Source: a virus
Lineage: Duplodnaviria > Caudoviricetes
Length of the DNA stretch: 64,000 bases
Virus record (IMG/VR): IMGVR_UViG_641201351_000001
Coordinates: 32,001 to 96,000 of that record
Strand: one strand, 5' to 3'
Shown: positions 1 to 20,484 of the stretch, piece by piece
How positions within the stretch are numbered: the first letter of the stretch is position 1
Layout: every line of letters starts with the position of its first letter
Program-made: the position numbers and the translations under genes
Notes under the pieces: model-generated
What the model was told of the DNA's origin: nothing
Seen by the model: the letters and a program-made list of their open reading frames with translations, nothing else
Database searches by the model: none

Positions 1-498
1 GAGAAAAATAGCTTTAAAGACGCTGCAAAAATTTTTGGAATGGATGAACAAATGCTACAGCTAGCAATTTCTGCTTACGAAAAAACAAAGAAATTGGCTA
101 AGATTGCGAGAGAAGGACAAAATCACCCGATTCAAGCTACTTCTGCATCAATTACAAAAACAGCTATGGTTGATCTCTTAGAATACCTGTCAATGACAGG
201 GTATGGATATATGACTTTAACAGTTCATGACAGCATTTTCTTTGAAATCAAGAAAGAATTTATTTTTGATGCACTTCCAAAAATAAAAGAAATAATGGAA
301 CAAGCTGGTCCAAAAGTTGTTCCCGGAATTATAACTCCAGTTGATGTTGAGGTAGGAGAGAAAATATCGGTATATTGCAATTCTTGCGGTAAAGAAAACG
401 AGATTAATAGATACATGGTAAATCTAAATGAGAAGATAATTGTTGATTTTACTAAGGATCCTTATATTTGCGATGAATGCTTTAACAGGGTTATTTAA
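1..498 (+). CDS. polA: DNA polymerase family A, C-terminal part (5' partial), with a C-terminal Zn-ribbon-like tail
   Basis: Frame open from base 1. AREGQNHPIQATSA and motif C TVHDSIFFE are PolA palm motifs. Tail has CNSC...CDEC. Confidence 0.92.
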   Translation, partial: EKNSFKDAAKIFGMDEQMLQLAISAYEKTKKLAKIAREGQNHPIQATSASITKTAMVDLLEYLSMTGYGYMTLTVHDSIFFEIKKEFIFDALPKIKEIMEQAGPKVVPGIITPVDVEVGEKISVYCNSCGKENEINRYMVNLNEKIIVDFTKDPYICDECFNRVI

Positions 499-781
499 AA
501 TAGTTTCTTAACCAAAAATTCCAGAAGGGCATTAGGGATATTTCAAACGATGCTACTATAAAAACTTCTAACAAATCCAATTTTCTGCCAATCAAGTCTT
601 CAAATAGATTAGATATAATCCACAGAAATCCAGCTACTCCCCAAGAAATATCACGAAAACTCGGCTTTTGTTTAATTATGAAGCTTCCTATTAACACTAC
701 TAGTGAAAATGTAGCCCAGGAAGTTATTATCATTCCCAAGAAATTAACAAAGAGCCTCACTATGTCGCTATTTAGTTCCAT
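491..781 (-). CDS. Small membrane protein, possible lysis accessory
   Basis: 96 aa with 2-3 hydrophobic segments; overlaps the upstream holin-like genes. Confidence 0.55.
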   Translation of the reverse strand: MELNSDIVRLFVNFLGMIITSWATFSLVVLIGSFIIKQKPSFRDISWGVAGFLWIISNLFEDLIGRKLDLLEVFIVASFEISLMPFWNFWLRNYFK

Positions 782-1034
782 TGTCGTTCTTTACCCCCGT
801 CCTATCTTTTTTATCATCATCGTTCTCTTTTTCGTTGACATTATAGGAATTTCCTTTTAATCTGTGTGCGAGTTCACCTATACCTAATAGGGCACCCCAG
901 GCTGAGCCTATTAAAAATGCCCAACCTTGAGGTATATCCTCTCCCGTTAATAAACTGCGTATTAAGAGTGCTAGTGCAGTAACGGAGGTAATTGTTAATA
1001 AAGTTATTCTTATTATAGTGTTTTCTTGATTCAT
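768..1034 (-). CDS. Two-TM holin-like membrane protein
   Basis: Two hydrophobic helices (ITLLTITSVTALALLI; WAFLIGSAWGALLGI) and a charged C-tail; ATGA overlap with the upstream gene. Confidence 0.55.
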   Translation of the reverse strand: MNQENTIIRITLLTITSVTALALLIRSLLTGEDIPQGWAFLIGSAWGALLGIGELAHRLKGNSYNVNEKENDDDKKDRTGVKNDNGTK

Positions 1035-1309
1035 TTTTGCTTTTCATTTTCCCACGCATTCTTAAGGTTCAAGAAGGAAACTACAGCATCAATAAGACCA
1101 GAAACAAAATTAACAATTTCCTTTTGCTTTTCCTCGCTTAATGAAGTTATGTTTAGCGCTTCATCAAGAAGATCCATTGCAATTCTCTTCTTTTCTTTCC
1201 CGTCTTTTTCTTTATATAGACTTTCTACCTTTTGGACCACTTTTATAACTGTAGGGAGGTATTGAACAACTAGGTTTAGGAATGAGATTATTTTTAATAT
1301 AGCTACCAT
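1031..1309 (-). CDS. LL-H-family holin-like protein
   Basis: N-terminal hydrophobic stretch, then VVQKVE..DGKEKKRIA..LIDAVV resembling the LL-H holin pattern; AGGTGG SD 5 nt before ATG 1309. Confidence 0.55.
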   Translation of the reverse strand: MVAILKIISFLNLVVQYLPTVIKVVQKVESLYKEKDGKEKKRIAMDLLDEALNITSLSEEKQKEIVNFVSGLIDAVVSFLNLKNAWENEKQK

Positions 1310-1371
1310 GATTACCACCTTTATTTATTTTATTTAAATGTAGAGAAGAGTTTTATTTTTCCCGGTGCGTA

Positions 1372-1400
1372 TTGACAGCTATGCTGTTTTATGGTAATAT
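1372..1400 (+). promoter_or_regulatory. Sigma70/SigA-type promoter
   Basis: TTGACA-17 nt-TAATAT with TG extension. Confidence 0.8.
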
Positions 1401-1416
1401 TGAACAAGGGAGAAAC

Positions 1417-1746
1417 ATGCTAGGAGCAGTTTACATACTAGAAAAGAGGGGAAGGGGTTTTTACAAGGTTATAGAGAAGGTGGTTAATGAGTTTGTCAAT
1501 GATTCTGATTTAGAGAGTTTAACAATTAGTTTGGCGAATGATGTTTTTGCAAAAAATGGAGCAATTGGTAAAGTTGAACCAACAAATGAATTTTTTATGA
1601 GCGGTTCTGTAGAAATCGATGGAAAAAAATTTAAAACGAGAAGAGTAAAAACTTATAGAGTAAAGATAAATCACTCAAAACTGACAAAAGATGCGGAATT
1701 TTTTGTTGAATCTGTTATTTTAAGTGAGAATGGACAAGTGGCATAA
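1417..1746 (+). CDS. Hypothetical protein (109 aa)
   Basis: ATG 1417 follows the promoter and an AAGGGAG SD; the track start (TTG 1372) is the -35 box. Confidence 0.7.
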   Translation: MLGAVYILEKRGRGFYKVIEKVVNEFVNDSDLESLTISLANDVFAKNGAIGKVEPTNEFFMSGSVEIDGKKFKTRRVKTYRVKINHSKLTKDAEFFVESVILSENGQVA

Positions 1747-2158
1747 AAGATTCATTGAATTAGCAAAAACAATTGCTCAATATTCGAAGGATCCAAGAAC
1801 AAAAGTAGGTGCTGTAATTGTTGATAATGAAAGAAGAATTGTTTCTATGGGATATAATGGCTTCCCAAGAAAAGTTTTGGATTTAGAAGAAAGATTAAAT
1901 AACAGAAAAGAAAAACTCAAATATGTTGTTCATGCAGAGTTGAATGCTATTTTAAATGCTAAAAGAGATATAGAGGGAACAACAATTTATGTTTATCCTT
2001 ATTTTCCTTGCAATGAGTGTGCCAAAGCAATAATTCAGTCTGGTATAAAGAAGGTAATAACTACGGGAATAGTAGATGATAATTGGAAAGAATCAGTTGA
2101 AGCCTCAAAAAACATGTTTAATGAAGCTGGTATAATTGTGGAAATCTTTCAAGAATAA
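1730..2158 (+). CDS. dCMP deaminase
   Basis: HAELNAI and PCNECAKAI zinc motifs, plus SKDPRTKVGAVIV and MGYNG. Confidence 0.95.
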   Translation: MDKWHKRFIELAKTIAQYSKDPRTKVGAVIVDNERRIVSMGYNGFPRKVLDLEERLNNRKEKLKYVVHAELNAILNAKRDIEGTTIYVYPYFPCNECAKAIIQSGIKKVITTGIVDDNWKESVEASKNMFNEAGIIVEIFQE

Positions 2159-2187
2159 GATTTATTTTGTTTATTTAAAATAAGTGT

Positions 2188-2616
2188 ATGTATATTGATG
2201 TTATAAAATTAATCTTGCTTATAGTTTCTTTTACAAATGGTAAACCAGCTACAGAGGATATCGCTTGGCAAGTAGCTTTTAAATTTACACTACCAGAAAA
2301 TACGCCAATAGTTGAAGTTTCATTTGATTATGTGCCTATTTACTTTTCTTCTTTAAACGGAAATCTTTGCGGAATATCTTATGGAGCGTTTGTGATTATT
2401 GATCCAAACAATAAAGAAAAAGGTTGTGAAAATACATTGGAACACGAATTGGCGCATATTTGGCAATATAGGTCTTATGGGTTTATATTACCCATAACAT
2501 ATCCATTTATGAAAGACTTTTGGGAAACTGATGAACCATGGCACAAAATACCAGAAACACACAGAGTTTTAAACTTTCCCCTTATAAGATTTTATATACC
2601 GTTAACTTTTCCGTGA
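2188..2616 (+). CDS. Exported or membrane zincin-like metallopeptidase
   Basis: N-terminal hydrophobic leader; LEHELAHIWQ (HEXXH); TAAAAT 6 nt before ATG. Confidence 0.65.
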   Translation: MYIDVIKLILLIVSFTNGKPATEDIAWQVAFKFTLPENTPIVEVSFDYVPIYFSSLNGNLCGISYGAFVIIDPNNKEKGCENTLEHELAHIWQYRSYGFILPITYPFMKDFWETDEPWHKIPETHRVLNFPLIRFYIPLTFP

Positions 2617-2630
2617 TAACATAAAAACAA

Positions 2631-3155
2631 ATGAAGGATACTTTCAACATCTACATAGACGTAGCCTTAAGAAAATCTGGTGTTTTAATAACAAAAGGCA
2701 AACAACCGATAGAGCATTTTTTAATTAAGTATGACAAAGAATTTAATGTAGAAAACTTTGAAGCTATTGTTGCACACAAAAAATTTATAAAAAAGACATT
2801 TCAAAAAATAAAAGAAAAGTATAAAAAGTTTGATAAGGCATTTTTAGAAGCAGATGTTCTTGGTTATAGAAAAGGGGGTTTTAAGAATAAGGAATTAATG
2901 ACAATAGTAAGAATGAATTATAGCTTTTCTTTAAGTGAAGTTTTAGTTAAACCAAAAAATATTCACTTTATAACAGCGTCTGTATGGAAAAGAAAACTAC
3001 TAGGAAATGCCGCTTTAAAAAAAGCAGAGTACAAAGAAAGGTTGGTAAAATTGATTGAAAAGGAATTGCACATAGAAATTAGTGATATCAAAAGTATGGA
3101 TATATTGGATGCATACGGCATTTTCCTGTATTTCTTTAAATCAAATGTTGTGTAG
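2631..3155 (+). CDS. RuvC-like Holliday junction resolvase
   Basis: IYIDVALRKSG, FLEAD, ITASVWKR and DILDAYGI match the RuvC acidic residue pattern. Confidence 0.75.
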   Translation: MKDTFNIYIDVALRKSGVLITKGKQPIEHFLIKYDKEFNVENFEAIVAHKKFIKKTFQKIKEKYKKFDKAFLEADVLGYRKGGFKNKELMTIVRMNYSFSLSEVLVKPKNIHFITASVWKRKLLGNAALKKAEYKERLVKLIEKELHIEISDIKSMDILDAYGIFLYFFKSNVV

Positions 3156-3200: not shown

Positions 3201-5594
3201 ATGACTGACCTAGCAAGATACAAGGAAGAGCTTTACGGATCTGAAGCCTTAAGGGTTCTTTTTGATAAGATAAAGAGTAATTTTGAAGAGGATGTTGATA
3301 CTTTTGAGAAATTTTTGGAATATGGAGAACCAGAAAATGCGCTAACAAAAGAAGAAATTAACAATGTATTTACTGAACTTGAAAAACTAGGATTAATTGA
3401 AGAAATTAAAGATGAGCTTTCTTCTTTCTACAAAGTAAAGAAAGAAGATTTGATTGACGGGTTTTTTGTTCAAAACATTTCTAGCGAAATCTACAAACAA
3501 AAATACCAACTGAAGGATGGAAAAAACAAAAATGAGCTAGTTGATTTAACGCCATACCACACATTTGTTCGTGTAGCACTAGCTGTAGCATTAGTTAATG
3601 CTAGATACTCAAAAAGATTAGAAAAGTATGGTTTAGATGCATTTAAGACTTTTGTTGACGATTTTCTTTCCTTCTTTTACATTTTGGCAACTGGAAGATC
3701 TACTGGTGCGGGTAGAGTAATGTCAAACGCTGGTTCTAAGTTATATAAGACTTACACGACACTAATAAACTGTACAGTAATGAGGCAAATTCCTGATAGC
3801 ATGCATGGAATAATGGAAACACTAACTGAAGCTAGTCTTACCTTAAAGGCTGGTGCGGGAACAGGATACGATTTTTCCTCTATTCGTCCTAAGGGCGCTT
3901 TTGTTCACGGTGCTGGTGCAGAAACTTCTGGTGTAGTTTCATTTGCTGAAATTTTTGACAAAATGTGTTCAACTATTATGTCTGCTGGTGGAAGAAGAGG
4001 AGCACAAATGCTTGTTATTGATGTAAGACATCCAGAAAGCATTGATCTATTTATGGCAAAAAGAAATGATGGGGTTCTTAGATATTTCAACATTTCTCTT
4101 CTTTTCCCCAATTCACTAATGGAAAAAGTTAAAAATGACGAAGAATTTGAGCAATGGTTCTGGACTTTTGAGATGACATTTACTCCTAGTGAGGTTATTG
4201 AAAAAAATGGTAACAATGTTTTCTTTATTGGAGATAAAGAAGTAGTAATTGTTGAAAATGGCAAACTTCCTTATGAGTACGAAGAATACGACTATTTTGC
4301 TTTTGGTGAAGATCATCAAGTAATGAAATATGAAAATTTTGGTAAAGATAAGTATAGAATTTACAAAAAAGAAGTATTTAAGAGAGTAAGAGCTAGGGAA
4401 ATTTATGATATCGTAATGCAATCTACCTACGACTATGCAGAACCAGGAATTATTTTTATTGATAATGTAAACAACAAAAATGTTTTGAAGGGAAAGGAAT
4501 ACATTAGGGCAACAAATCCATGTGGAGAACAGCCTTTGCCACCATACGGTTCTTGCAATTTAGGTTCTATTTTCCTTCACAGGTTTGTTAAGGAGCCCTT
4601 TAATTATGATTTGAAACCAGAAGAAAATTTTGATTTTGACAAACTTTTTGAGGTTTCCAGGTTAATGAATAGATTTCTTGATTTTGTTAATGACATAACA
4701 AATCTTCCGCTAGTTCAATTAAAAGAGGCCGCTTTTACTAAGAGAAGGCATGGGCTTGGAATTTCTGGTATTGCAGACACATTAATAATGGTTGGACTTA
4801 GATACGGTTCTGAGGAAGCTGCAAAGTTTTTAGAAAAAATAATGTATACGATACAACTTGCTTCTGCAGTAGAAAATGTTAGAATGGCCGATATTTATGG
4901 TCCTGCTCCCGTTGGCGTTACACTAAAAGAATGGGTAGATGTGTTTGGTCATTTAAAAGAGAAGCTTGAAGAGATTTACGGAGAAGACTTTTATAAACTA
5001 CCACTTAGATATTCTCACGCAATCTCTATTGCTCCAACTGGAACAATTTCTTTAACATTCGGAAACAATGTAGCTAACGGAATTGAGCCTACTTTTGCTT
5101 TGTCTTACATGAGGAACATTAGATTGCCTGGCAAAAAAACAAAAACTCAAGAAGAGGTCTATTCATTTGCTGCAATCCTTTTTAAGAATTACTTTGGACA
5201 CACAAATTACAATGAATATTTTGTTACTACAAACGATATTACTGTAGATGAACATATAAGGATGCAAGCTAGCGCACAGAAATATGTTGATAGCGCAATT
5301 TCAAAGACCTGCAATGTTCCTACTGATTATCCATTTGAGATGTTTAAAGAAGCTTATATTAAGGCATATGAATTGGGCCTTAAAGGATTTACCACATTCA
5401 GATTTAACCCCAAGTTTTCTGTAGGCGTTCTTGTAAAGAAAGATGACTTAGAGAACCTGTTAATTGAATTTGAAACAGATACTGGGGAGAAATATGTTGT
5501 AAAAGGTTCAGATATTGTTGTTTATGATGGTGAAGAACATGTGGCAGCCAATCTTTACGAGGCATTAAAAGAAGGCATTTACGGGCGCATGTAA
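3201..5594 (+). CDS. nrdJ: Class II (B12-dependent) ribonucleotide reductase, catalytic part (NrdJa-like)
   Basis: TLINC, RRGAQM, ATNPCGEQPL, SCNLGS, IAPTGTIS, GIEP motifs; no class I beta subunit nearby; next gene carries the NrdJ C-terminal part. Confidence 0.9.
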   Translation: MTDLARYKEELYGSEALRVLFDKIKSNFEEDVDTFEKFLEYGEPENALTKEEINNVFTELEKLGLIEEIKDELSSFYKVKKEDLIDGFFVQNISSEIYKQKYQLKDGKNKNELVDLTPYHTFVRVALAVALVNARYSKRLEKYGLDAFKTFVDDFLSFFYILATGRSTGAGRVMSNAGSKLYKTYTTLINCTVMRQIPDSMHGIMETLTEASLTLKAGAGTGYDFSSIRPKGAFVHGAGAETSGVVSFAEIFDKMCSTIMSAGGRRGAQMLVIDVRHPESIDLFMAKRNDGVLRYFNISLLFPNSLMEKVKNDEEFEQWFWTFEMTFTPSEVIEKNGNNVFFIGDKEVVIVENGKLPYEYEEYDYFAFGEDHQVMKYENFGKDKYRIYKKEVFKRVRAREIYDIVMQSTYDYAEPGIIFIDNVNNKNVLKGKEYIRATNPCGEQPLPPYGSCNLGSIFLHRFVKEPFNYDLKPEENFDFDKLFEVSRLMNRFLDFVNDITNLPLVQLKEAAFTKRRHGLGISGIADTLIMVGLRYGSEEAAKFLEKIMYTIQLASAVENVRMADIYGPAPVGVTLKEWVDVFGHLKEKLEEIYGEDFYKLPLRYSHAISIAPTGTISLTFGNNVANGIEPTFALSYMRNIRLPGKKTKTQEEVYSFAAILFKNYFGHTNYNEYFVTTNDITVDEHIRMQASAQKYVDSAISKTCNVPTDYPFEMFKEAYIKAYELGLKGFTTFRFNPKFSVGVLVKKDDLENLLIEFETDTGEKYVVKGSDIVVYDGEEHVAANLYEALKEGIYGRM

Positions 5595-5606
5595 AAGGAG
5601 GCCTAC

Positions 5607-6206
5607 ATGGTAGAGATAAAGGGAAAGATAATCGGATTTCGTCTTCTAGAAAACAAAGAAGATGATAAACAAAAACCCCTTATTAGAAATCAAGTGGTTC
5701 ATGGTTATACAATAAAAATTTCATACAACGATCACTCTCTCTATTTCACCTTAAATTTTGATGAGCAAGGAAATCTTTTAGAGCTTTTTGTTAACAGCTC
5801 CTCAACATCGTCTTCAACTAATGCTTATATACAAGCGATCGCTAGAATGGTAAGCAATCAATTAAAATATAGAATTCCAATAGAAAAGATTATCAAGCAC
5901 TTAGATAACCTTGATTCTGGAGAAACTTATTTGGTAAAGTTTCCTGGAATGAAGAAATCTAAATTCATTAAAAGTATTCCTGATTTAATAGCAAAAGTTT
6001 TGACATACTACAAAGATGAAGAAACGCTTAAAAAAATTTCCCAAGGAAATAATTTAGATGAAAAACCAGAAGAAAAATATAATGATGAAACAAAAATTGA
6101 AGTTAAGACCTCTTCTATAACTTGTCCCTCATGTGGAAGCAATAGCGTAAAAGTTGAAGAAGGATGCTTTACATGCTTGTCTTGCGGGTATTCTAAGTGT
6201 GGCTGA
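5607..6206 (+). CDS. Class II RNR C-terminal subunit (TSCPD domain plus Zn ribbon, NrdJb-like)
   Basis: AIARMVS, SIPD and C-terminal CPSCGS..EEGCFTCLSCGYSKCG; AGGAGG SD. Confidence 0.85.
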   Translation: MVEIKGKIIGFRLLENKEDDKQKPLIRNQVVHGYTIKISYNDHSLYFTLNFDEQGNLLELFVNSSSTSSSTNAYIQAIARMVSNQLKYRIPIEKIIKHLDNLDSGETYLVKFPGMKKSKFIKSIPDLIAKVLTYYKDEETLKKISQGNNLDEKPEEKYNDETKIEVKTSSITCPSCGSNSVKVEEGCFTCLSCGYSKCG

Positions 6207-6239
6207 GGCTTTTGTGGTATATTTAGGTTGGAGGTGTAC

Positions 6240-6446
6240 ATGAACCTTTCCTGGGTGGAAGAACTTAGAAAGGAAAGAGAAATGATCGAAAGCGAATATG
6301 CCTCTCTTGGACAAAAGATACAAGAACTAGAAGCTAGAAGGAAAATGTTAAGAGAACGGGCAATTTATTTGGAGGGTGTTTTAGATGCTGTAAAGAAGAT
6401 TCAAGAAGAAACACAAGCCAACGAAACAAGCCAAGAAGGTAACTAA
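6240..6446 (+). CDS. Small coiled-coil protein
   Basis: GGAGGTG SD before ATG 6240; heptad-rich sequence. Confidence 0.7.
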   Translation: MNLSWVEELRKEREMIESEYASLGQKIQELEARRKMLRERAIYLEGVLDAVKKIQEETQANETSQEGN

Positions 6447-6458
6447 AGGAGAGAAAAC

Positions 6459-6911
6459 ATGTTAGTAGATCAGGATGGAAAGCCACTAAGCAAGAAGGAG
6501 CTTAAGTATCTTCCTAATTTTTTGGGAATTGTTTCTGTTGTTACAAAGAAAAGCGTTGTGGAAACAAATGAACCACTTGAACCATACTTTATAATGTTTA
6601 TGCTTGTTACGCCTCAAAAAATGGAGCTTTATTCTCAGGCTGGTTCGTTGTTGCAGGAGGTAATACTTCACAATCTTCTTGACTCATATGTTAAGAAGGA
6701 ATACGGGAAAGAATTAAAGGAAATGGACGAAAAAGAAGCACAAAAAATGCTTTCCGAATTTTTGAGGAAATATCAAGTAAACATTCAGCCACAACCAATT
6801 CCTCTGGATTTTGTTGTTTTAGAAAACATTGACGAAGAAGAATTAAAGAAGCTAGTAGAGCAGGAAAAACTAAAGAGCGGCTTTTTGGTAAGCGGCAATG
6901 AACAAGGATAA
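6459..6911 (+). CDS. Hypothetical protein
   Basis: 150-aa ORF with AAGGAG SD, in operon. Confidence 0.75.
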   Translation: MLVDQDGKPLSKKELKYLPNFLGIVSVVTKKSVVETNEPLEPYFIMFMLVTPQKMELYSQAGSLLQEVILHNLLDSYVKKEYGKELKEMDEKEAQKMLSEFLRKYQVNIQPQPIPLDFVVLENIDEEELKKLVEQEKLKSGFLVSGNEQG

Positions 6912-12425: not shown

Positions 12426-13127
12426 TTAATCCTCGTACCACTTTCTGTTGTAGTCTATATCAAAGTCTTTCTTTAGGTTAAACTTGTGTCCATGAACAAC
12501 ACCTTCACCTATTGCAATAGAAAGCTTTCTACTTAAAACATCATTTCTCCATCTGGGATTAGCTAAATCTGCAACAACATAAGCCAAAACTTTTAGTTTT
12601 TCCCATTCATATTTTGGGTTTAGTTCTTTTATTCTCTTGTTGTATTCGTTTATGTGATCCTTTCTAGGAGCGCCGTTTTGAACAGCCACATCAAAACACA
12701 AGGCTAAGGCTCTTTCGCTTTCAAAATTTAATGCTTCACAAAGAAGTTGCGCCCTCCTAAAGTAGTTGTTTGCAGCCTTTTTAAAGGCTTCTACAGTTTC
12801 TTTTTCCTTAGCTAGGTTTTCAAACTTTATTGACCACTCTCTTTTTACTCCTTTTCCAACGAGAACATTTTTAAGAATGAAGTCTTTGAGTGTTCCGTTG
12901 TATAAAGCCTCTACAAACCCTTTTCCTAGGTATTTTTCTAAGGTTTCTTTGCTTATCATTTTCAATAGTCTTTGAAGTGTTCCTTGTCCTATGTTCCATT
13001 GAAGGGGGCCATATGAAAGTATTTGACCGTCAAAATTTCCTGCTACTCTACCCCAATCCCCACTTACTTCAAATAGGGAAACAAGTCTGAGTAGCTTTTC
13101 TTTTAGATCTTCTTTTATTTTCTTCAT
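12426..13127 (-). CDS. Lysozyme-fold peptidoglycan hydrolase (endolysin candidate)
   Basis: FE..G, GNFDGQILSYGPLQWN.GQGTL and FDVAVQNG are lysozyme/chitosanase-superfamily motifs. Confidence 0.7.
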   Translation of the reverse strand: MKKIKEDLKEKLLRLVSLFEVSGDWGRVAGNFDGQILSYGPLQWNIGQGTLQRLLKMISKETLEKYLGKGFVEALYNGTLKDFILKNVLVGKGVKREWSIKFENLAKEKETVEAFKKAANNYFRRAQLLCEALNFESERALALCFDVAVQNGAPRKDHINEYNKRIKELNPKYEWEKLKVLAYVVADLANPRWRNDVLSRKLSIAIGEGVVHGHKFNLKKDFDIDYNRKWYED

Positions 13128-13186
13128 ATAATATTAGTTTACAGTCTTTAATTGAACGAAAATTTTGTGATAATATAAAGTCAGCA

Positions 13187-14209
13187 ATGAAGACTAGAAC
13201 AATTGACGAAATTAGATATCTAAAAAGACTAGAAAACATCATAAAAGCTAGAATGCAAGATATTGTTAATAGCAATGATATCATTGAGTCTACCCCAGAA
13301 GATAAAGTAAGAATACGGATACCTATAATGGACGAACCGTATTTTAAACCTGTGTTTCCTGGTAGTGGTGCTGGGGCAGGATCTGGATCGGGGAGTGAAC
13401 CTGGAGAGGGTAGCGAGGAAGGTGATCACGAAATTGAAATTGAACTTACTGTTGAAGAACTTTCTGAACTTCTATTTGAATACCTAGGATTGCCCAAAAT
13501 AAAACCAAAAGGCTCTTCTGTAGAGAAAGAAGAATATTTAATTGAAGGAATTTCTAAGACTGGACCAAGATCTAGAATACACAGGAGGAAAACATATTAC
13601 GAAATTATGAAGTATGGTTATAAAGAAGATTCTATAAGGTACAAACACCTTAGGAAAAGAGAAGTACCAATATTTGATGCAATAGTTTATTTTGCAAGAG
13701 ATTACTCTGCATCAGTAGATGACAAGAAAAAATTTAAAATAAAATCAACAGCGTTTTGGATAAATAACTTCATTAAATACAATTACAAGAATGTAACAAC
13801 AAAGTTTGCTGTTCACGACACAAAGGCTAAATTTGTAAGCGAGCAAGATTTTTTTAAGTTGTCTGAAGGTGGAGCTACGCTTTGTTCTTCAGTTTTTGAG
13901 TTAATATATGAAGACTACAGAAGGTATTCAGTAGACGATTATAATTTTTACCTCTTTTACTTCTCTGATGGCGAAAATCTACCAGATGACAATCCTAAAC
14001 TTAGGGAATTAGTAGAAAAGCTATCAGAGGACTTTAACTTAATAGCTTATGGAGAGGTAAAAAGTACAGATGTTTATTACGGATATGGATCTAAAGAAAC
14101 TCTGGTTCCATTATTTATTTCAGTTGGAAAAGATAATGTATTTGCAGAAAAAATCTTTTCAGTAAAGGATTTTATATTGAGGCTTTTTGGTGAGAAAAAT
14201 GAAAGGTAG
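13187..14209 (+). CDS. YeaH/YhbH (DUF444) vWA-domain protein
   Basis: IPI.DEPYF, Gly-rich linker, ELT.EEL..LFE.LGLP, MIDAS residues DYSAS, GGAT and FSDGEN. Confidence 0.9.
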   Translation: MKTRTIDEIRYLKRLENIIKARMQDIVNSNDIIESTPEDKVRIRIPIMDEPYFKPVFPGSGAGAGSGSGSEPGEGSEEGDHEIEIELTVEELSELLFEYLGLPKIKPKGSSVEKEEYLIEGISKTGPRSRIHRRKTYYEIMKYGYKEDSIRYKHLRKREVPIFDAIVYFARDYSASVDDKKKFKIKSTAFWINNFIKYNYKNVTTKFAVHDTKAKFVSEQDFFKLSEGGATLCSSVFELIYEDYRRYSVDDYNFYLFYFSDGENLPDDNPKLRELVEKLSEDFNLIAYGEVKSTDVYYGYGSKETLVPLFISVGKDNVFAEKIFSVKDFILRLFGEKNER

Positions 14210-15536
14210 AAATTACGAAAAAGAAACCTTAGAAATTCTTGAATGGGTAAAAGATTTGGGTTTAGAACCGAAAGACACAATTTTTGTAGATGTAGATAGA
14301 GATAAGCTAATTTTTGCAATATCAAACCACTTTGTTAATGGAATTCCACATTGGACAAAAGGAAGAAATTTCATAAAATACAAAGAACATGAATTGCAAG
14401 GAGGAAAAGTATTTGAAGTTGTTTTTAATAGTACACCAGCAGTAGCCTATATGAGTCTGGCGTTGACAGAAGCTGATATATTGACGATTATTGCTCATGT
14501 TTACGGTCATACACACATTTTTGCAAATAATATTTTTGAATACAAGGATGACAACATATTAGAAAAACTTAACTATTCTCTCCAAGTTTACGAAGAAATG
14601 CTTTCTTATTATTCTTACGATGAGCTAGATGTAATTTATGACTACGCTTATACTGCTTGGAACCTTTTGGTTCCTGATGAAATTCGTGAGAATAAAATAG
14701 AAAACACAACTAAAGAAGAGTTTACTGAGAATAAAATATTTAACAAATTTTTGGGAAGGAAGCCAAAAGTAGAAGATTTTAGGGAAAAGTACAAAAAAGA
14801 GAAAGAAACGGAGTTTAAAAAGAAATATGGAATAGGTTCTGTGTATATACACGAATACATACTAGAACATTCACCCATTCCTGATTGGATGAAAACGCTT
14901 ATAAACAATGAAATTGATCTGCTTAAAGTAATAATGAGAAAGTCAAAATTAAAAATTCTCCACGAGGGGTTTGCTTCTTGGGTAGATACAAAATATCTGC
15001 TTGAAAAAATGGAGGGAAAAGAGTTTTTTAGTAGCTTAATTTCATCTACTCTTGTTGGTTATCCCAGTTTGAGAAATCCTTACTATATTGGATATAAGTT
15101 GTTAGAATTTGCAGAGAATTTTATGAATAAGAAAATACCAGAATATGTTAAATATGTTGATGATTTTGAGCTTATAGAGGAGGTGTTTAATGAAGACTTT
15201 TTTTATTGGCTTTTAAAGCAGTTTCCTCTAGATGAGGATGAGAAGAAAATTTTGTCTGACAGAGAATTGTTTGAAGAAGTTTTTGAGAATCAGAAACAAA
15301 AACTTTTATCAGAATGTCTAAATTATTATCCAATCATTTATATAGATGACTACCCAGATAACATTGAGGAGCCGTCATATGATTATCTAAAAGTATCTTC
15401 GTATTCGCAAAACAGAAAATTAAAGCTTACTTCACAAACCCCGTTGGACACTAGGTATGCTTACGAAACACTAAAAGTTTTAGAAAAAATTTGGATGGGA
15501 CCAATTGTGTTAAGATACAAAACGCTAAAAAAATAG
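14200..15536 (+). CDS. SpoVR/YcgB family protein
   Basis: PHWTKG, VFEVVFNS.P..AY, IAHVYGHTHIF, LHEGFASW and NPYYIG. Start uncertain (14187 or ATG 14200). Confidence 0.9.
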
Positions 15537-15563
15537 GCGAAAGTGCCGGGATATAATTAGATT

Positions 15564-17414
15564 ATGAACCTTGTGGATATTATAAGTTTCTTTGGAACTA
15601 CAGGATCACAACTTCCGTTTAACATAAAAGAAGAGGAAGGAAAATATTACCTAATAAACAACCCCAATAACAAAGTAAACAATATTCCGCTTTCAGATGG
15701 AATTTATTTTGAAGTAATTCAAGGTACGCTAGACAATCAAAACGGGCTAACTCAAAATTTGGTTGTTAAGCTAAGAAATCCAAACAATATACAAATAGCT
15801 TCCTCGTATGTTGTTAGACTTTACAACGCCCAAAACGGTGCTCTACTATTTGAAACTTATGTACCCACTTCCTTCGATGGTTTAGAAGTTTCTTTTTCAA
15901 CTAATGTAAATGTTCCACTTATTACGATTGAAGCAAACGGGTTAGTCCTCTACACAAGTTATGAATACTTAAATGGCTATATTCCTTTAGACCAAAGAAT
16001 TTATGCTTCTTTTAGAGATCCTAATAACATTGAAGTTTTTAGGGCTTTTTTTGTTAGAAAGGTAAACAACAAAAGATATTTCACTTCAACCTTCAGATCT
16101 GTTTACAACAAGTTTTTGAATTCGTCGGCAATTCCTTTTAGATTTTTAGACGCTTACCTAAACAATACAATAATAGGAAATTTCAATTATCAAATAATCA
16201 CAGAATTTAAATTTCCACAGCAGTATAGATTTATTTCAGAACAAGAGTCGCTTTCTATAAGCGCTTATTCAATAATGCTTTTAGCTTTCTATAAAGATTT
16301 TGTTGAAAAACTATCTGGATTTTTAGTAGATGAAGTAGACTTTTCACAACTAGATAAAGATTCAAGAAACTTTCCTTACAAAAAGTATTTTTACAACAAA
16401 AACACTTTGTCTTACGAAAAAGTATCCTCCTATGTGGACATAACAGAGCTTTTGCTTGCAATACTACTAGGAATAAAAATATATGGAATGCTAGATTCCA
16501 GCAAACAAATAATTGATAATTTGGTTAATGCGCTAAACACTTTTTCACCAACTGTTTATTATCCAGACGCATCAGTTGGTTCAAAGGCTTTAATACCTGA
16601 TATCATAAATTCAAATGTAGAAGAACAGTATTCTTTGTTTACAAATGTTTTATTTGCGCATATATTAAATCTTTTAGGAATTGATAATTCGACATTAATC
16701 GATGAAATAAACAGAGTATTTGTCAATAATAGCAAAAAAACAGAAAATAGGTCTTTAGGCACTATAAACTCTTTTACTCCTCTTGAAGCGGCAGTTATTT
16801 TAAAATTTGCACCCCAATATCTTGATACAAGTAACAATTATGTTTCTTCACTAATTTCTTCAGCAACCTCTCATCTCTATTCTGTAGAATATGTAAACTC
16901 TATAGCTTTAAATTCTGATGCAAATTCAGATTCTTACAACCCAATATATAGTGAAAATCTGTCTTCAGCTTTGCCATTTTACGACAAAAGAACTTATGTA
17001 AATCTAATTATAAATAGTCTGTTAGATAATCCGATAAACAACTTTAGAGCTTTTTCTTCTGACGAAGCAATATTGGATAGCTACAAATATTCTATTTACG
17101 AAGGTTTTTATATATTGCCTTCACTTAGAGCAAACCTGACATATTTCTTTTTGAGTATGGAGAATGCATTTGAAGGTAGGGTAGAAGAAAAATCTGAAGT
17201 TGTGCTTATAGATAGTGTTATAAGTGTTGGAACAAATCAGTTGATTGTGGAATTAATTTTTAATAAACCAGTAAAAATTTTGTCAATAATTTCTAATCAA
17301 GGAGTACCTACAGCTTACGCATCGTCAATGTCTGAAAGCGCTCACCATGTATTAACATTTTCTGTTATTAACACCTACTTAAATGGGGTTTTAGAAATTT
17401 ACGTTCTAAGTTAA
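15564..17414 (+). CDS. Hypothetical 616-aa protein, possibly structural
   Basis: Long Asn/Ser-rich ORF with TATAAT 6 nt before ATG. Confidence 0.7.
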   Translation: MNLVDIISFFGTTGSQLPFNIKEEEGKYYLINNPNNKVNNIPLSDGIYFEVIQGTLDNQNGLTQNLVVKLRNPNNIQIASSYVVRLYNAQNGALLFETYVPTSFDGLEVSFSTNVNVPLITIEANGLVLYTSYEYLNGYIPLDQRIYASFRDPNNIEVFRAFFVRKVNNKRYFTSTFRSVYNKFLNSSAIPFRFLDAYLNNTIIGNFNYQIITEFKFPQQYRFISEQESLSISAYSIMLLAFYKDFVEKLSGFLVDEVDFSQLDKDSRNFPYKKYFYNKNTLSYEKVSSYVDITELLLAILLGIKIYGMLDSSKQIIDNLVNALNTFSPTVYYPDASVGSKALIPDIINSNVEEQYSLFTNVLFAHILNLLGIDNSTLIDEINRVFVNNSKKTENRSLGTINSFTPLEAAVILKFAPQYLDTSNNYVSSLISSATSHLYSVEYVNSIALNSDANSDSYNPIYSENLSSALPFYDKRTYVNLIINSLLDNPINNFRAFSSDEAILDSYKYSIYEGFYILPSLRANLTYFFLSMENAFEGRVEEKSEVVLIDSVISVGTNQLIVELIFNKPVKILSIISNQGVPTAYASSMSESAHHVLTFSVINTYLNGVLEIYVLS

Positions 17415-17452
17415 CCTAAAGAACGGGAAGAAAGTGCTATAATATACTCAAG

Positions 17453-19312
17453 ATGAAGTTAAACAGGTTTTTCAAGGGTAAAACAGCGGAGAGCAGAAAA
17501 CTTTCATTTAAAGAATTTCTTGAGGAAAAATTTGTAAGAAACCCCGCAAAGTATTCTAGAAGTGCACATAAATACCTTTTTGATGCAATTACATATTTTG
17601 GGTTCGATGAGGAAAGAAAAATTCCAAAAATCTTTGCAGATGAGCTTTTTGGTGTTGACGATAAAATAAGAGAATTCATGACTATTTTAGAAGCGGGCGC
17701 AAATGGTCATGATGTAAGAAGAAGAATAATCCTTTTTGTTGGTCCAGTAGGAACGGCAAAAAGTACCTTTGTAAGCATTATTAAGAAGGCACTAGAAAGA
17801 TACTCCAAAACAGAAGAAGGAGAAATTTATGCTATAGAATTTTGTCCGATACATGAAGATCCACTAAATTTGATTCCAGAAGATACAAGAGATGATTTTT
17901 ATAAGGAGTTTGGAGTAAAAATAGATCAAGAACTTTGCCCAGTTTGCAGGCATAAATTAAAGGAACTGAAATATGAAGATGTTAGTACAGTACCAGTAGT
18001 TAGGTTTACTTTTTCTGAAGCCGAAAGAAGAGGAATTGCTACATTTGTTCCTGCAGATTGGACCTCACAAGATGTTTCTGTACTTGTTGGCTCAGAAAAT
18101 TTCAGAGCTGTGCAAGAGTTAGGTGATCCTTCACATCCTTTGGGTTGGAATTTTAATGGTTCATTATTTGTTGCAAACAGAGGAATTCATGAATTTATTG
18201 AGCTTCACAAAGCAAAACCAGACCTTCTTTTTCCTTTAATTACTGTTGCACAAGAAAGAAAAGTAAAAGTTGATAGGTTTGGTTTAATCGATGTTGATGA
18301 GGTCTTGATTGCGCATACAAACTATGCAGAATACAATAAATTCGTTAACAAAAAAGAAAATGAAGCGTTAAAAGATAGAACAAGAGAAATAAATTGGATT
18401 TACAATTTAAGATGGGACGATGAAGAAAAAATTTATAAAAAAATGTTGGGAGAAACTACATATCATTTGGCTCCTTGGACATTAAAGTTCATTTCGGGTA
18501 TTGCAATTATGTCTAGATTATCACCAGATAGAGATAAGAAGTATGACTTGTTAACTTCATTAAAACTTTACAACGGTGATTATGGTGCAATGTACTCTGA
18601 ATACCATGTAGACGAAATGAAACATCCTGACGATGGTAAGTTCGGCATTTCGCCAAGGGTAGCAGTAGATGCGCTAAGCTTTGCTTCAGTAGGAAACACT
18701 TGTGTTACTCCAATTAGAGCCTACGAAAAACTAGAAGAAATAATTAAATCTGGAAATGTTGACATACCTCATAAAGAATTTTTGGCGCTAAAAGATATGA
18801 TTTTAACAGAATACAACAAATTTATCAAAGATGCAGTCTTCAGAGCTTTCATCGGTTCTTCCTTTGCCACCGAAGCGCAAAAGTATGTGGATCGTTATAT
18901 TGAAAACGCCCAGGCGTTTATTAATGGAGAAAAAATAAAAGATCCATTTACAGGAAATTATGTAGAACCTGATGAAAAATTTTTAAGGTCAATTGAAGAG
19001 CTAGTTGGAATTTCTAAAGAAGCCGCAAAAGATTTTAGAATGAAAATTCTTGTTAAAGCAACAAATTTACTGAGAATGGGCAAAAAGATTACTTACGATA
19101 TTCATCCTCTGCTAAAAGAAGCGATTGAAAATAAAATCTTTGGCGATAGAGCAACATTTATAAGGGGCTCAATAACTTCTGTAGTAAAAACTGAAGAACA
19201 GGAAAAGCACATACAAGAAGCAGTTGAAGAACTTAAAAAGGTTGGATTTTGCGAAGTTTGTGCAAGAGAAGCTATAAGCTATGTAGCATACCTACTTGAT
19301 GTAGCAAGATAA
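17453..19312 (+). CDS. prkA: PrkA/YeaG family AAA+ ATPase (serine protein kinase annotation)
   Basis: Walker A GPVGTAKST, CPIHEDPL, QDVSVLVG, ANRGIHEFIE, IAHTN, EALKDR and GISPR. Confidence 0.93.
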   Translation: MKLNRFFKGKTAESRKLSFKEFLEEKFVRNPAKYSRSAHKYLFDAITYFGFDEERKIPKIFADELFGVDDKIREFMTILEAGANGHDVRRRIILFVGPVGTAKSTFVSIIKKALERYSKTEEGEIYAIEFCPIHEDPLNLIPEDTRDDFYKEFGVKIDQELCPVCRHKLKELKYEDVSTVPVVRFTFSEAERRGIATFVPADWTSQDVSVLVGSENFRAVQELGDPSHPLGWNFNGSLFVANRGIHEFIELHKAKPDLLFPLITVAQERKVKVDRFGLIDVDEVLIAHTNYAEYNKFVNKKENEALKDRTREINWIYNLRWDDEEKIYKKMLGETTYHLAPWTLKFISGIAIMSRLSPDRDKKYDLLTSLKLYNGDYGAMYSEYHVDEMKHPDDGKFGISPRVAVDALSFASVGNTCVTPIRAYEKLEEIIKSGNVDIPHKEFLALKDMILTEYNKFIKDAVFRAFIGSSFATEAQKYVDRYIENAQAFINGEKIKDPFTGNYVEPDEKFLRSIEELVGISKEAAKDFRMKILVKATNLLRMGKKITYDIHPLLKEAIENKIFGDRATFIRGSITSVVKTEEQEKHIQEAVEELKKVGFCEVCAREAISYVAYLLDVAR

Positions 19313-19371
19313 AAAAGAAGAATTTGAAATTTAAACTAACTTTTCCTTCCCTAACAATGGGAAGGACGACC

Positions 19372-19400
19372 TTGCTTTCCAAAACTTTTTGTGTTAAGAT
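19372..19400 (+). promoter_or_regulatory. Sigma70-type promoter for dNMP kinase
   Basis: TTGCTT-17 nt-TAAGAT with TG extension; ATG 9 nt downstream, no SD. Confidence 0.6.
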
Positions 19401-19409
19401 AGGTCTAGT

Positions 19410-19997
19410 ATGTACCTACCGAGTTTAATAGGGCTAGTGGGAAAAGCGGGTTCAGGAAAAGACAGATTCTACTATTCGGTTTTAGCGAAATATAATTATG
19501 TGAGAATAGCTTTTGGCGATCCTGTAAAAGTTCTGTCAGTAATTCACTTACTAAAAAGTTATCCTGGAATTCTGGAAAAAGAAGATCAATTGCTAAGAGT
19601 TTTTCCTTCTCTGTATATTGAACTATTTTCTAACCAAAAAACCTCTCTTTCTAGAACACTTCAACAATATATCGGAACTGACTTAGCAAGAAGATTTGAT
19701 GAAAATTATTGGATAAAAATAGCAGAAGAACTTATAAAGGAAAAACTAGAAAAAGGAATTCGAGTAGCAGTTACTGATGTCAGATTTTTGAATGAGGCAG
19801 AAAGCATTAAGAAGCTTGGTGGAATTTTAATTAAGATAGTTGGTAAAGGTTCCTACGATTATGGTAATTTGGAAGCAAAACATCAATCAGAAAGCGAATT
19901 GGAAAAAATAGTTTGCGATTATACAGAAAATGAGTTTACTTCTCTAATTAAAAAACACCAAATCCTCGCTTCGGAGGTAGAAGATACAGGACAGTAG
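19410..19997 (+). CDS. Deoxynucleoside monophosphate kinase
   Basis: GLVGKAGSGKD, FGDPVK, RTLQQYIGT, VTDVRFLNE and HQSE. Confidence 0.92.
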   Translation: MYLPSLIGLVGKAGSGKDRFYYSVLAKYNYVRIAFGDPVKVLSVIHLLKSYPGILEKEDQLLRVFPSLYIELFSNQKTSLSRTLQQYIGTDLARRFDENYWIKIAEELIKEKLEKGIRVAVTDVRFLNEAESIKKLGGILIKIVGKGSYDYGNLEAKHQSESELEKIVCDYTENEFTSLIKKHQILASEVEDTGQ

Positions 19998-20022: not shown

Positions 20023-20051
20023 TTGACTCAAAACATGGAGTGTGGTATGAT
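20023..20051 (+). promoter_or_regulatory. Sigma70-type promoter for the tRNA
   Basis: TTGACT-17 nt-TATGAT with TG extension. Confidence 0.85.
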
Positions 20052-20067
20052 AGCTTTTGAGATGAGT

Positions 20068-20143
20068 GGCCTCGTAGCTCAACAGGAAGAGCACTCGCCT
20101 TGTAAGCGGGGGGTTGTGGGTTCAAATCCCACCGGGGCCTCCA
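20068..20143 (+). tRNA. tRNA-Thr (anticodon UGU), CCA encoded
   Basis: GGCCTCG/CGGGGCC acceptor, GCTC/GAGC D-stem, CTCGC-CT TGT AA-GCGGG anticodon arm, GTGGG-TTCAAAT-CCCAC T-arm, then T-CCA. Confidence 0.95.
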
Positions 20144-20148
20144 GAAAG

Positions 20149-20484
20149 ATGAAAAAAGTAAAAATAATAACCTCCTCAGAGCCTAATAAAGACTTTGTTA
20201 ATATAAACCTCCTAAATCGTAATGGAATTTTGAGGAAAAGCATTACCTATGGAGTTATGTTGAGAGAAACAAATTATGTATTTTTTGGAGTCAATGGAGA
20301 AACATACTTCAAAAACTATGTTAAAGATGTCTTTATAAGCGGAAAAAATAAACTTTTAGAAGAACTAAAAACAAAGGACACAATAAATCTTGTAACTATT
20401 GATGGAAAAGAAAATTTTTACAGCAAAATCTTAAAAGAAGTTTTATCTGATATCTTAAAAGAAGAAGGTTTTGAAGTCATTTAA
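20149..20484 (+). CDS. Hypothetical protein (111 aa)
   Basis: ATG 5 nt after the tRNA CCA; the upstream part of the track ORF is promoter plus tRNA. Confidence 0.65.
   Translation: MKKVKIITSSEPNKDFVNINLLNRNGILRKSITYGVMLRETNYVFFGVNGETYFKNYVKDVFISGKNKLLEELKTKDTINLVTIDGKENFYSKILKEVLSDILKEEGFEVI

Follow-up and report, generated by a model that had tools for sequence, protein, structure and literature searches.

Gene content of the locus

Four genes at positions 13187–19312 of a 64,000-nucleotide stretch of viral DNA (hereafter the window; positions 32001–96000 of the 152,372-bp IMG/VR virus record IMGVR_UViG_641201351_000001) are the subject of this study. They encode homologues of YeaH/YhbH, SpoVR/YcgB and PrkA/YeaG, here called the trio, together with a fourth protein, X, whose gene lies between the spoVR and prkA homologues. 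All four open reading frames (ORFs) are on the + strand and are found where a first-pass annotation of the sequence had placed them (Table 1). The G+C content of the window is ~32% throughout, and the DNA of the four-gene segment is 98.7% identical to that of Thermus phage TMA and 88% identical to that of YS40_Isch; the stretch is Thermus phage YS40 or a near-identical isolate. The annotation notes of YS40_Isch cite YS40_056 as a conserved bacterial protein, YS40_057 as SpoVR, YS40_058 as hypothetical, YS40_059 as a serine kinase and YS40_060 as a deoxynucleoside monophosphate (dNMP) kinase, and the TMA record labels these genes as well. Since the genes have been labelled for years in the public records of relatives, the present finding is a re-reading of known genes and not a new sighting.

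The cluster is almost certainly the YS40 copy of the PrkA/YeaG-YhbH/YeaH-SpoVR/YcgB system, long carried in Thermus phages and strongly selected, with X as an unrelated, lineage-specific insertion. Relative to YS40_Isch, the ratio of nonsynonymous to synonymous substitution rates (dN/dS) is 0.036 for yeaH, 0.033 for spoVR, 0.083 for X and 0.029 for prkA, at dS values of 0.6–0.8; all four genes are under strong purifying selection and are far from chance ORFs. The first-pass annotation had described the trio as complete and apparently intact, a description borne out by Pfam scores above the cut-offs, by the conserved residues detailed below and by this purifying selection. The MIDAS (metal-ion-dependent adhesion site), SpoVR and Walker A motifs that it quoted are likewise all present in the translations.

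Table 1. Genes and candidate regulatory elements of the trio locus (window coordinates)
Feature	Position	Strand	Description
-10-like elements TAATAT (13171–13176) and TATAAA (13174–13179)	13171–13179	+	In the 59-nt divergent spacer before yeaH; found by eye
yeaH/yhbH homologue (YS40_056)	13187–14209	+	DUF444 protein with C-terminal vWA domain and complete MIDAS, 340 aa; Pfam DUF444, 4.5e-48
spoVR/ycgB homologue (YS40_057)	14199–15536	+	445 aa from ATG 14199; alternative TTG 14187 gives 449 aa; Pfam SpoVR, 5.3e-23
Promoter-like AAGTGCCGGGATATAAT	15541–15557	+	TATAAT ends 6 nt before the ATG of X; leaderless geometry
X (YS40_058)	15564–17414	+	616 aa, function unknown; between spoVR and prkA
Promoter-like AAGTGCTATAAT	17432–17443	+	TATAAT 9 nt before the ATG of prkA
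prkA/yeaG homologue (YS40_059)	17453–19312	+	619 aa; N-terminal AAA+ and PrkA C-terminal domain; Pfam AAA_PrkA, 1.4e-82, and PrkA, 1.3e-52
8-bp GC-rich hairpin	19344–19366	+	Downstream of prkA; fold of 19313–19409 has a minimum free energy of -24.6 kcal/mol, z = -3.17

The encoded proteins

PrkA matches the Pfam family AAA_PrkA (PF08298) with 278 bits over residues 38–359 and the PrkA C-terminal domain (PF06798) with 179.5 bits over residues 368–610, the latter along the full length of the profile; the cut-off is 25 in both cases. Against the E. coli YeaG equivalog NF011999 it scores 209.9 bits, under the cut-off of 576, and it is best described as a divergent family member, closest to the Bacillota/Alicyclobacillus type. 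The Walker A sequence GPVGTAKST is read in the translation, and an alignment of 50 PrkAs shows no variation at K103 and S104 of this motif or at 33 further sites, E250, K253, D282, H288, N290, R309 and R355 being among the latter. A chain of PDB entry 9xip is matched with an E-value of 7.2e-97 (homologue structures 9xip, 9xiq and 9xir, 692 aa). A weak AAA_5 match (E 0.0047) is below the cut-off.

YeaH scores 164.8 bits against Pfam DUF444 (cut-off 27) in two stretches, corresponding to the N-terminal and the vWA parts, and a genome-level search covers profile positions 5–168 and 220–406. Its score of 178.5 bits against the NCBIfam YhbH profile TIGR02877 is under the equivalog cut-off of 467.95. 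The translation contains ARDYSASVDD, GGATLCSS and FSDGENL, and all 30 viral homologues compared keep the MIDAS residues D172, S174, S176, T231 and D261, so that the MIDAS (DxSxS ... T ... D) is complete. In a PDB sequence search no chain matched the YeaH or the SpoVR of the phage or of Thermomicrobium.

SpoVR scores 81.8 bits against its Pfam family (cut-off 27), the match being limited to positions 9–327 of the 407-position profile, and a profile search of NCBIfam gave no match. Translation most likely starts at ATG 14199 and not at TTG 14187, because TMA is annotated with the former start and the alignment to the PHROG profile begins at residue 5. With this start the end of yeaH overlaps the beginning of spoVR by 11 nt, and a yeaH–spoVR overlap is present in MN1 and Lalka also. 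The motifs AHVYGHTH and LHEGFASW are read in the translation; H100, H104 and E256, forming a His-x3-His plus Glu set, are invariant in 25 of 25 homologues. The SpoVR_C domain (PF24755), which is present in the RsoM2USA copy, was not detected in the YS40 protein by the Pfam search, and YS40 SpoVR is a trimmed form of the family. An AlphaFold2 (AF2) model of the protein was obtained with a mean predicted local distance difference test score (pLDDT) of 78.4 and a predicted template-modelling score (pTM) of 0.75. When compared to BFVD, this model gave one significant match, to a viral protein that, like the SpoVR of phage phiLo, has 617 aa. Zincin-type peptidases recur below the threshold in both the PDB and BFVD lists (E 0.1–1, TM-score 0.1–0.15), which is not significant and is regarded as a lead only. 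A structure search of the ESM Atlas with PF04293 excluded gave no usable match.

The phiLo SpoVR (phiLo_31; 5046–6899 of locus L003) exceeds the YS40, MN1 and Lalka forms by ~170 aa with its length of 617 aa, and its Pfam match stops at residue 373. Still longer SpoVR frames, of 857–941 aa, occur in jumbo viral contigs (L016 9829–12402, L050 9829–12402 and L066, in IMG/VR records G009, G043 and G048). The Pfam match in these frames is split (profile 5–105 and 101–402) by ~1.1 kb of extra sequence, possibly an intein; one has been recorded in the SpoVR of Chloroflexus (10.1101/2025.01.02.630785).

Protein X has no match in Pfam (E ≤ 1, seven members), in the PDB sequence search, in PADLOC or in the ESM Atlas, and in PHROG it matches its own family only. 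Homologues were found in 3 of 50,697 GenBank phage records and in 7 clusters among 5.8 billion proteins, and a profile search of 1.84 billion representatives returned 10 matches, all of one orphan family. X adjoins the trio in the YS40/TMA lineage only, there being none beside the trio in L010 (an IMG/VR locus), MN1, phiLo, Lalka, RsoM2USA or LR756511. X is an insertion specific to the YS40 lineage, from a tiny orphan family. Its AF2 model is poor (pLDDT 46.6) and unfit for a structural search.

Distribution of the trio among phages

The same 50,697 GenBank phage records were surveyed with the trio proteins by tblastn. PrkA is found in 14 records, namely TMA (two records), YS40_Isch, MN1, three Lalka phages, phiLo, the Ralstonia jumbo phage RsoM2USA, four uncultured phages of 595–642 kb and Enterobacter phage LAU1; for SpoVR the count is 12 records and for YeaH 16, the latter including four records of three Bacillus phages described below. 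Pfam searches place DUF444 and SpoVR beside PrkA in MN1, phiLo, Lalka27a and RsoM2USA, and all larger Thermus-phage lineages (YS40/TMA, MN1, Lalka 8/27a/27b and phiLo) hold the trio.

An alignment-based scan of IMG/VR gave 63 PrkA loci, 49 of which were tested for the partner families; the other 14, partial matches mostly at contig ends, were left out. SpoVR accompanies PrkA in 42 of the 49 records and DUF444 in 45, and the records that lack either are mainly proviruses or short contigs with PrkA at the end. Many carriers are contigs of 111–395 kb. Among five jumbo contigs, none matched the YS40 large terminase (TerL) and one matched Terminase_6N, and the viral status of the carriers is taken from the IMG/VR and CheckV labels. 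The bacterial gene order prkA-yeaH-spoVR is seen in most IMG/VR loci, and the Thermus-phage order in eight (L009, L010, L032, L034, L035, L037, L042 and L051).

The trio is thus rare in phages but recurs in jumbo phages. A full set had been called unusual for a lytic phage in the first-pass annotation; it is indeed rare, but it is not unique, being kept in four Thermus-phage lineages and in jumbo phages, and it had already been annotated. In titles, abstracts and excerpts from the literature on PrkA/SpoVR/YeaG-YeaH-YcgB and on Thermus phages, a body that does not include the primary YS40 and TMA papers, no treatment of the three genes as a phage module was found. New in the present analysis are the presence of the trio in every larger Thermus-phage lineage, the single PrkA clade described below, the rarity counts, the lineage specificity of X and the link to expression timing in Lalka27a.

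Two further observations were made in the GenBank survey. A lone YeaH-like vWA 'sporulation protein', with no PrkA or SpoVR match by tblastn, is encoded in four records of Bacillus phages (KU577463/NC_031056, Deep Blue; MH638312, Kioshi; LC785692, CM1). In the record of Enterobacter phage LAU1 (MN688132) the YeaG and YeaH genes lie at 226–3113, at the very start of 30.8 kb, and may be host flanking DNA in a prophage-derived record.

Origin of the phage genes

The closest relatives of YS40 PrkA are a series of YS40-like metagenome proteins, 74–55% identical, followed by proteins at 45–41% and by those of Armatimonadota at ~40%. Among the best 120 matches the nearest named cellular relative is the PrkA of Alicyclobacillus (45%), and no protein there bears the name of Thermus, about three quarters of them carrying no name. 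Identity is at most 37.5% for copies on plasmids (Thermomicrobium) and ~28% for YeaG of the proteobacterial type. Among sequenced proteins there is none of which YS40 PrkA would be a recent copy. A one-protein query of genome contigs returned only a Sporosarcina locus. A recent capture from the host was considered and is not supported, given that outside the YS40-like series all identities are ≤45% and that the best 120 matches contain no Thermus-named protein.

A quick maximum-likelihood tree of PrkA was built from 50 rows: the window, 22 of the 63 IMG/VR loci, MN1, phiLo, Lalka27b, RsoM2USA, LR756511, Sporosarcina, Thermomicrobium and 8 named and 12 unnamed relatives. The Thermus-phage PrkAs form one clade of 13 rows with a Shimodaira–Hasegawa approximate likelihood-ratio test (SH-aLRT) value of 99, and its sister, also at SH-aLRT 99, consists of P0018 and P0020, the P0018 cluster holding the PrkAs of Alicyclobacillus mengziensis and A. 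curvatus. Both this clade and the sister group have the motif SHPLxW (Y for W in P0020) at a place where most other sequences read SDPRAY. The jumbo-contig PrkAs are spread over at least three other groups, and identity across the four divergent Thermus-phage lineages is about 41%. The rows of the tree do not include a Thermus host sequence. On the simplest reading, acquisition took place once and long ago, in a forebear of the larger Thermus phages, or else these phages exchanged the genes with one another; jumbo phages would have made acquisitions of their own.

The host has trio genes of its own. DUF444 and SpoVR score above the cut-off in a Thermus thermophilus control genome (one of 4 positives among 14 controls), and T. 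aquaticus is reported to have spoVR and prkA (PMC4605624). The phage copy is therefore not filling a gap.

Genomic context and expression

Upstream of the module on the + strand lie genes that probably encode tail or baseplate parts, one of them sheath-initiator-like, and the divergent gene immediately before yeaH (12426–13127, - strand) is annotated as peptidoglycan-binding. Downstream are the dNMP kinase gene (19410–19997), tRNA-Thr (20068–20143) and, on the other strand, the large terminase gene, ~1.2 kb from the module. A 153-aa TTG-started ORF at 20023–20484 (+), which is the hypothetical TMA_060 in TMA, is probably not a gene, because it overlaps tRNA-Thr(TGT) on the same strand. YS40, MN1 and Lalka all have a dNMP kinase gene downstream of the trio, no more than ~4 kb away, and a gene for a peptidoglycan-binding protein is nearby in YS40 and MN1. 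These shared neighbours look like remnant synteny among Thermus phages that are otherwise very different (32–61% G+C).

Leaderless, phage-type promoters were proposed for the module in the first-pass annotation. According to a preprint on Lalka27a, most YS40 and Lalka27a transcripts are leaderless and start 6 nt after a TANNNT element (10.64898/2026.04.20.719267). The geometry upstream of X is an exact fit to this rule, and the elements before yeaH and prkA would give leaders of 1–4 nt; for yeaH the two -10-like elements of Table 1 give a range of 0–4 nt. A sigma-70 scan did not call the elements before yeaH. Since yeaH and the peptidoglycan-binding gene are divergent and only 59 nt apart (13128–13186), their promoters must overlap. 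AAGTGC precedes TATAAT at both X and prkA, and the pattern AAGTG-N1-10-TATAAT has 2 matches in the window against 0.89 expected, a number reached in 24 of 100 shuffles. TATAAT-N5-9-ATG occurs 7 times in the window against an expectation of 5.4, which is no enrichment, and a generic sigma-70 scan is at chance level (29 against 31). The proposal is only partly borne out: a TATAAT stands 6 nt ahead of the X start codon and 9 nt ahead of the prkA start codon, but such elements are not enriched, and leaderless phage-type promoters for the module are plausible but unproven. The hairpin after prkA was not called by the terminator scan because it has no T-run; from its predicted fold it is a possible terminator or processing site at the module end.

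Evidence on timing comes from Lalka27a, in which the DUF444 gene (Lalka27a_12) is followed by those for SpoVR (13) and PrkA (14). In the RNA-seq time course reported in the same preprint, P12-M, a promoter without a -35 element and supported by small-RNA sequencing (sRNA-seq), precedes gene 12, a middle gene, and late promoters carry a distinct TAGGGT element (10.64898/2026.04.20.719267). The numbering of the preprint and that of GenBank agree, because the dNMP kinase gene (gene 20) falls in the middle 22–18 cluster of the preprint. The Lalka module sits among late genes, with those for the portal and the minor head protein on one side and the TerL gene on the other.

Comparison with known systems

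The bacterial and archaeal PrkA/YeaG-YhbH/YeaH-SpoVR/YcgB system (E. coli yeaGH and ycgB; B. subtilis prkA-yhbH and spoVR) comprises the same three Pfam families, clustered and co-oriented, and its Walker A, MIDAS and SpoVR His/His/Glu residues are kept in YS40. Several differences are noted. The first-pass annotation had stated that the gene order is rearranged, which is correct: it is yeaH-spoVR-X-prkA in YS40 and prkA-yhbH-spoVR in Thermomicrobium and phage RsoM2USA. With 340 and 445 aa, respectively, YS40 YeaH and SpoVR fall short of the about 390–530 aa of their bacterial and jumbo-phage counterparts, all three YS40 proteins lie far below the NCBIfam equivalog level, X is inserted, and SpoVR is without SpoVR_C and two near-invariant histidines. 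The YS40 module is also carried by a lytic phage, probably with its own -10-only promoters. In the other phages (TMA, YS40_Isch, MN1, Lalka8/27a/27b, phiLo, RsoM2USA and the uncultured phages of 595–642 kb) the three families are present and adjacent. RsoM2USA and most of the IMG/VR jumbo contigs have the bacterial order and longer, bacterial-like proteins, and fall in clades apart from the Thermus phages.

The MoxR-type pairs of AAA+ and vWA-MIDAS proteins (RavA-ViaA, CbbQ-CbbO and BchI-BchD) offer a second comparison. In these pairs a gene for an AAA+ ATPase adjoins one for a vWA protein with an intact MIDAS, as is likewise the case in YS40. Unlike them, PrkA has its own Pfam family, a large C-terminal domain and an obligatory third partner, SpoVR, and membership of the MoxR group is not claimed.

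The third comparison is a physiological one. In E. coli, YeaG (renamed SpdA) is reported in a 2026 study to be needed for the non-specific, starvation-induced degradation of cytoplasmic proteins that supplies amino acids and ATP, and deletion of yeaG largely abolishes the bulk protein loss induced by starvation (PMC13684143). The AAA+ protein is homologous, and among the physiological processes so far linked to the family only this one would be of obvious value to a phage. The E. coli process is controlled by RpoS and runs over hours of starvation, and YS40 PrkA is ~28% identical to YeaG-type proteins of proteobacteria. In six bacteria, yeaG, yeaH and ycgB mutants are mutual best cofitness partners (10.1101/072470).

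Proposed function of the module

We tentatively favour, at somewhat less than an even chance, a reading in which the three proteins form one ATP-driven protein-remodelling or degradation system, made mid-infection, that turns over host cytoplasmic protein to feed phage synthesis. On the model of other AAA+/vWA pairs, PrkA would be the AAA+ motor and YeaH, with its vWA domain and MIDAS, the adaptor. The third subunit would be SpoVR, whose translation is coupled to that of YeaH and which, with the invariant His-His-Glu set, probably binds metal. To judge from E. coli, the phage may switch starvation-type proteolysis on irrespective of the growth state of the host, and host protein would then be converted into building blocks and energy for phage synthesis. 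The proposal draws on homology, co-inheritance, timing in a related phage and E. coli physiology, from which complex formation, enzymatic activity and the host proteome as the substrate are inferred. In favour of one functional unit, the three families travel together, in IMG/VR (42/49 and 45/49), in all four Thermus-phage lineages and in RsoM2USA. The other carriers are large, slow phages, which is counted in favour of the proposal; the 344-kb RsoM2USA is described as having a latent period of 270 min. An ATP-driven machine for remodelling or proteolysis had also been put forward in the first-pass annotation, and this part of its interpretation fits the starvation proteolysis dependent on E. 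coli YeaG (PMC13684143), the support being drawn from the literature.

A number of points weigh against this proposal. The biochemical activity of all three families is unsettled, and the literature on PrkA is contradictory. The E. coli study shows dependence on YeaG and not that YeaG is a protease, and it mentions neither YeaH, YcgB nor phages (PMC13684143). B. subtilis PrkA digested casein only over ~24 h, in an ATP-dependent manner requiring the Walker A Lys (PMC9512850), and carefully purified B. anthracis PrkA was without detectable protease or kinase activity, a contaminant being suggested by the authors as the cause of the earlier result (PMC13001217). YS40 SpoVR lacks two other near-invariant histidines of its family, H263 being replaced by Asp and the segment of H412 deleted, and the same is true of L010. 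A structural search of the PDB with the SpoVR model gave 0 matches at E ≤ 0.001; a hydrolase role for SpoVR is unsupported because there is no significant solved fold relative. The timing rests on Lalka27a, a search of public runs having listed no RNA holder for the YS40 module. The module also lies beside packaging and head genes, with those for the portal, the minor head protein and TerL in Lalka and the terminase ~1.2 kb downstream in YS40. Finally, the idea that the trio goes with low-GC phages of GC-rich Thermus, whose amino-acid demand would differ from that of the host (69% G+C), was rejected: the locus is 61% GC in MN1, 52% in phiLo and 32% in YS40.

Another reading, which we hold to be unlikely, is that PrkA is a signalling Ser/Thr kinase regulated by YeaH and SpoVR and that phosphorylation of host proteins reprogrammes metabolism or transcription. 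The label 'serine kinase' is attached to the gene in TMA, YS40_Isch, phiLo and MN1. Phage T7 gp0.7 provides a comparison for host reprogramming by a kinase. According to reports cited in PMC9512850 and 10.1101/072470, E. coli YeaG phosphorylates itself as well as casein and AceA, and the middle-class timing in Lalka27a would also suit a takeover function. On the other hand, kinase activity was not seen in B. subtilis or B. anthracis PrkA, and the C-terminal P-loop is described as degenerate (PMC9512850, PMC13001217); the residues invariant in all 50 PrkAs include the Walker A Lys of the AAA+ domain.

Targeted control of the host state, or counter-defence, in which a few specific stationary-phase, dormancy or defence proteins would be removed or remodelled and a stressed or starving Thermus cell kept productive, is improbable in our judgement. 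It would agree with the variation of trio phenotypes between bacterial species (10.1101/072470) and with the effect of B. subtilis PrkA on sporulation through a regulator pathway (PMC9512850). With a copy already present in the host, the phage-encoded one may act by overriding host regulation or by mimicking it, and at the site of the inhibitory phospho-acceptor T217 of B. subtilis the phage PrkAs have Val or Ile, though some bacteria do too. Against it, none of the four proteins matched a PADLOC defence family and there is no candidate target, and the E. coli data point to non-specific turnover (PMC13684143).

A more specific form of the proteolysis proposal, to which we give a similarly low probability, is that the trio is a self-contained machine for recycling the host proteome independently of growth state, in effect starvation proteolysis in a viral version, with SpoVR as the missing metal-dependent hydrolase, PrkA as the unfoldase and YeaH as the MIDAS adaptor. 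A hydrolase partner of this kind would explain why purified PrkA alone has shown little or no protease activity.

Maturation of virion parts, the second role suggested in the first-pass annotation, is quite improbable. An AAA+/vWA pair acting as a chaperone in the assembly or maturation of capsid or tail parts would be in keeping with the location of the trio between the portal and minor head protein genes and the TerL gene in Lalka27a/b, and between the sheath-initiator-like gene and the terminase gene in YS40. Despite these flanking late structural genes, the YeaH gene of Lalka27a (gene 12) is, according to the preprint, a middle gene with its own mapped, non-late promoter that lacks TAGGGT, which argues against a virion-maturation role (10.64898/2026.04.20.719267). 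The neighbours of the trio in MN1 are not structural genes but hypothetical ones and a gene for dCTP deaminase, and the trio also works in non-viral bacteria and archaea. That the genes are passengers with no role in infection has a next to negligible probability, considering the dN/dS of 0.03 for the trio genes at dS 0.6–0.8, the retention of the module in four divergent Thermus-phage lineages (PrkA about 41% identity) and the invariance of the catalytic and MIDAS residues.

Implications

PrkA/YeaG, YeaH and SpoVR are widespread in bacteria and archaea and strongly induced by starvation, and they have remained mechanistically opaque, described as kinase, protease or neither. The full set is kept, under strong selection, in several unrelated groups of large phages, in one of which it is transcribed mid-infection; this implies a direct, short-term benefit in the infected cell and reduces the number of possible roles. 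The view that proteolysis in the service of phage synthesis is that benefit would, if true, add the recycling of protein to phage biology, beside the recycling of host DNA by T4-type phages. Viral spoVR has been catalogued as an auxiliary gene for 'sporulation', as in marine viromes (PMC8940887), and this practice would be corrected as well. The Thermus-phage proteins are small and thermostable, the host is non-pathogenic and has tractable genetics, and a PrkA homologue has been solved, which makes the question directly testable; if the reading as a recycling machine is true, these compact, thermostable phage versions would be the best material for solving the mechanism of the family. With a conserved phage clade, mid-infection timing and a link to starvation proteolysis, the module offers a good experimental handle on an open problem.

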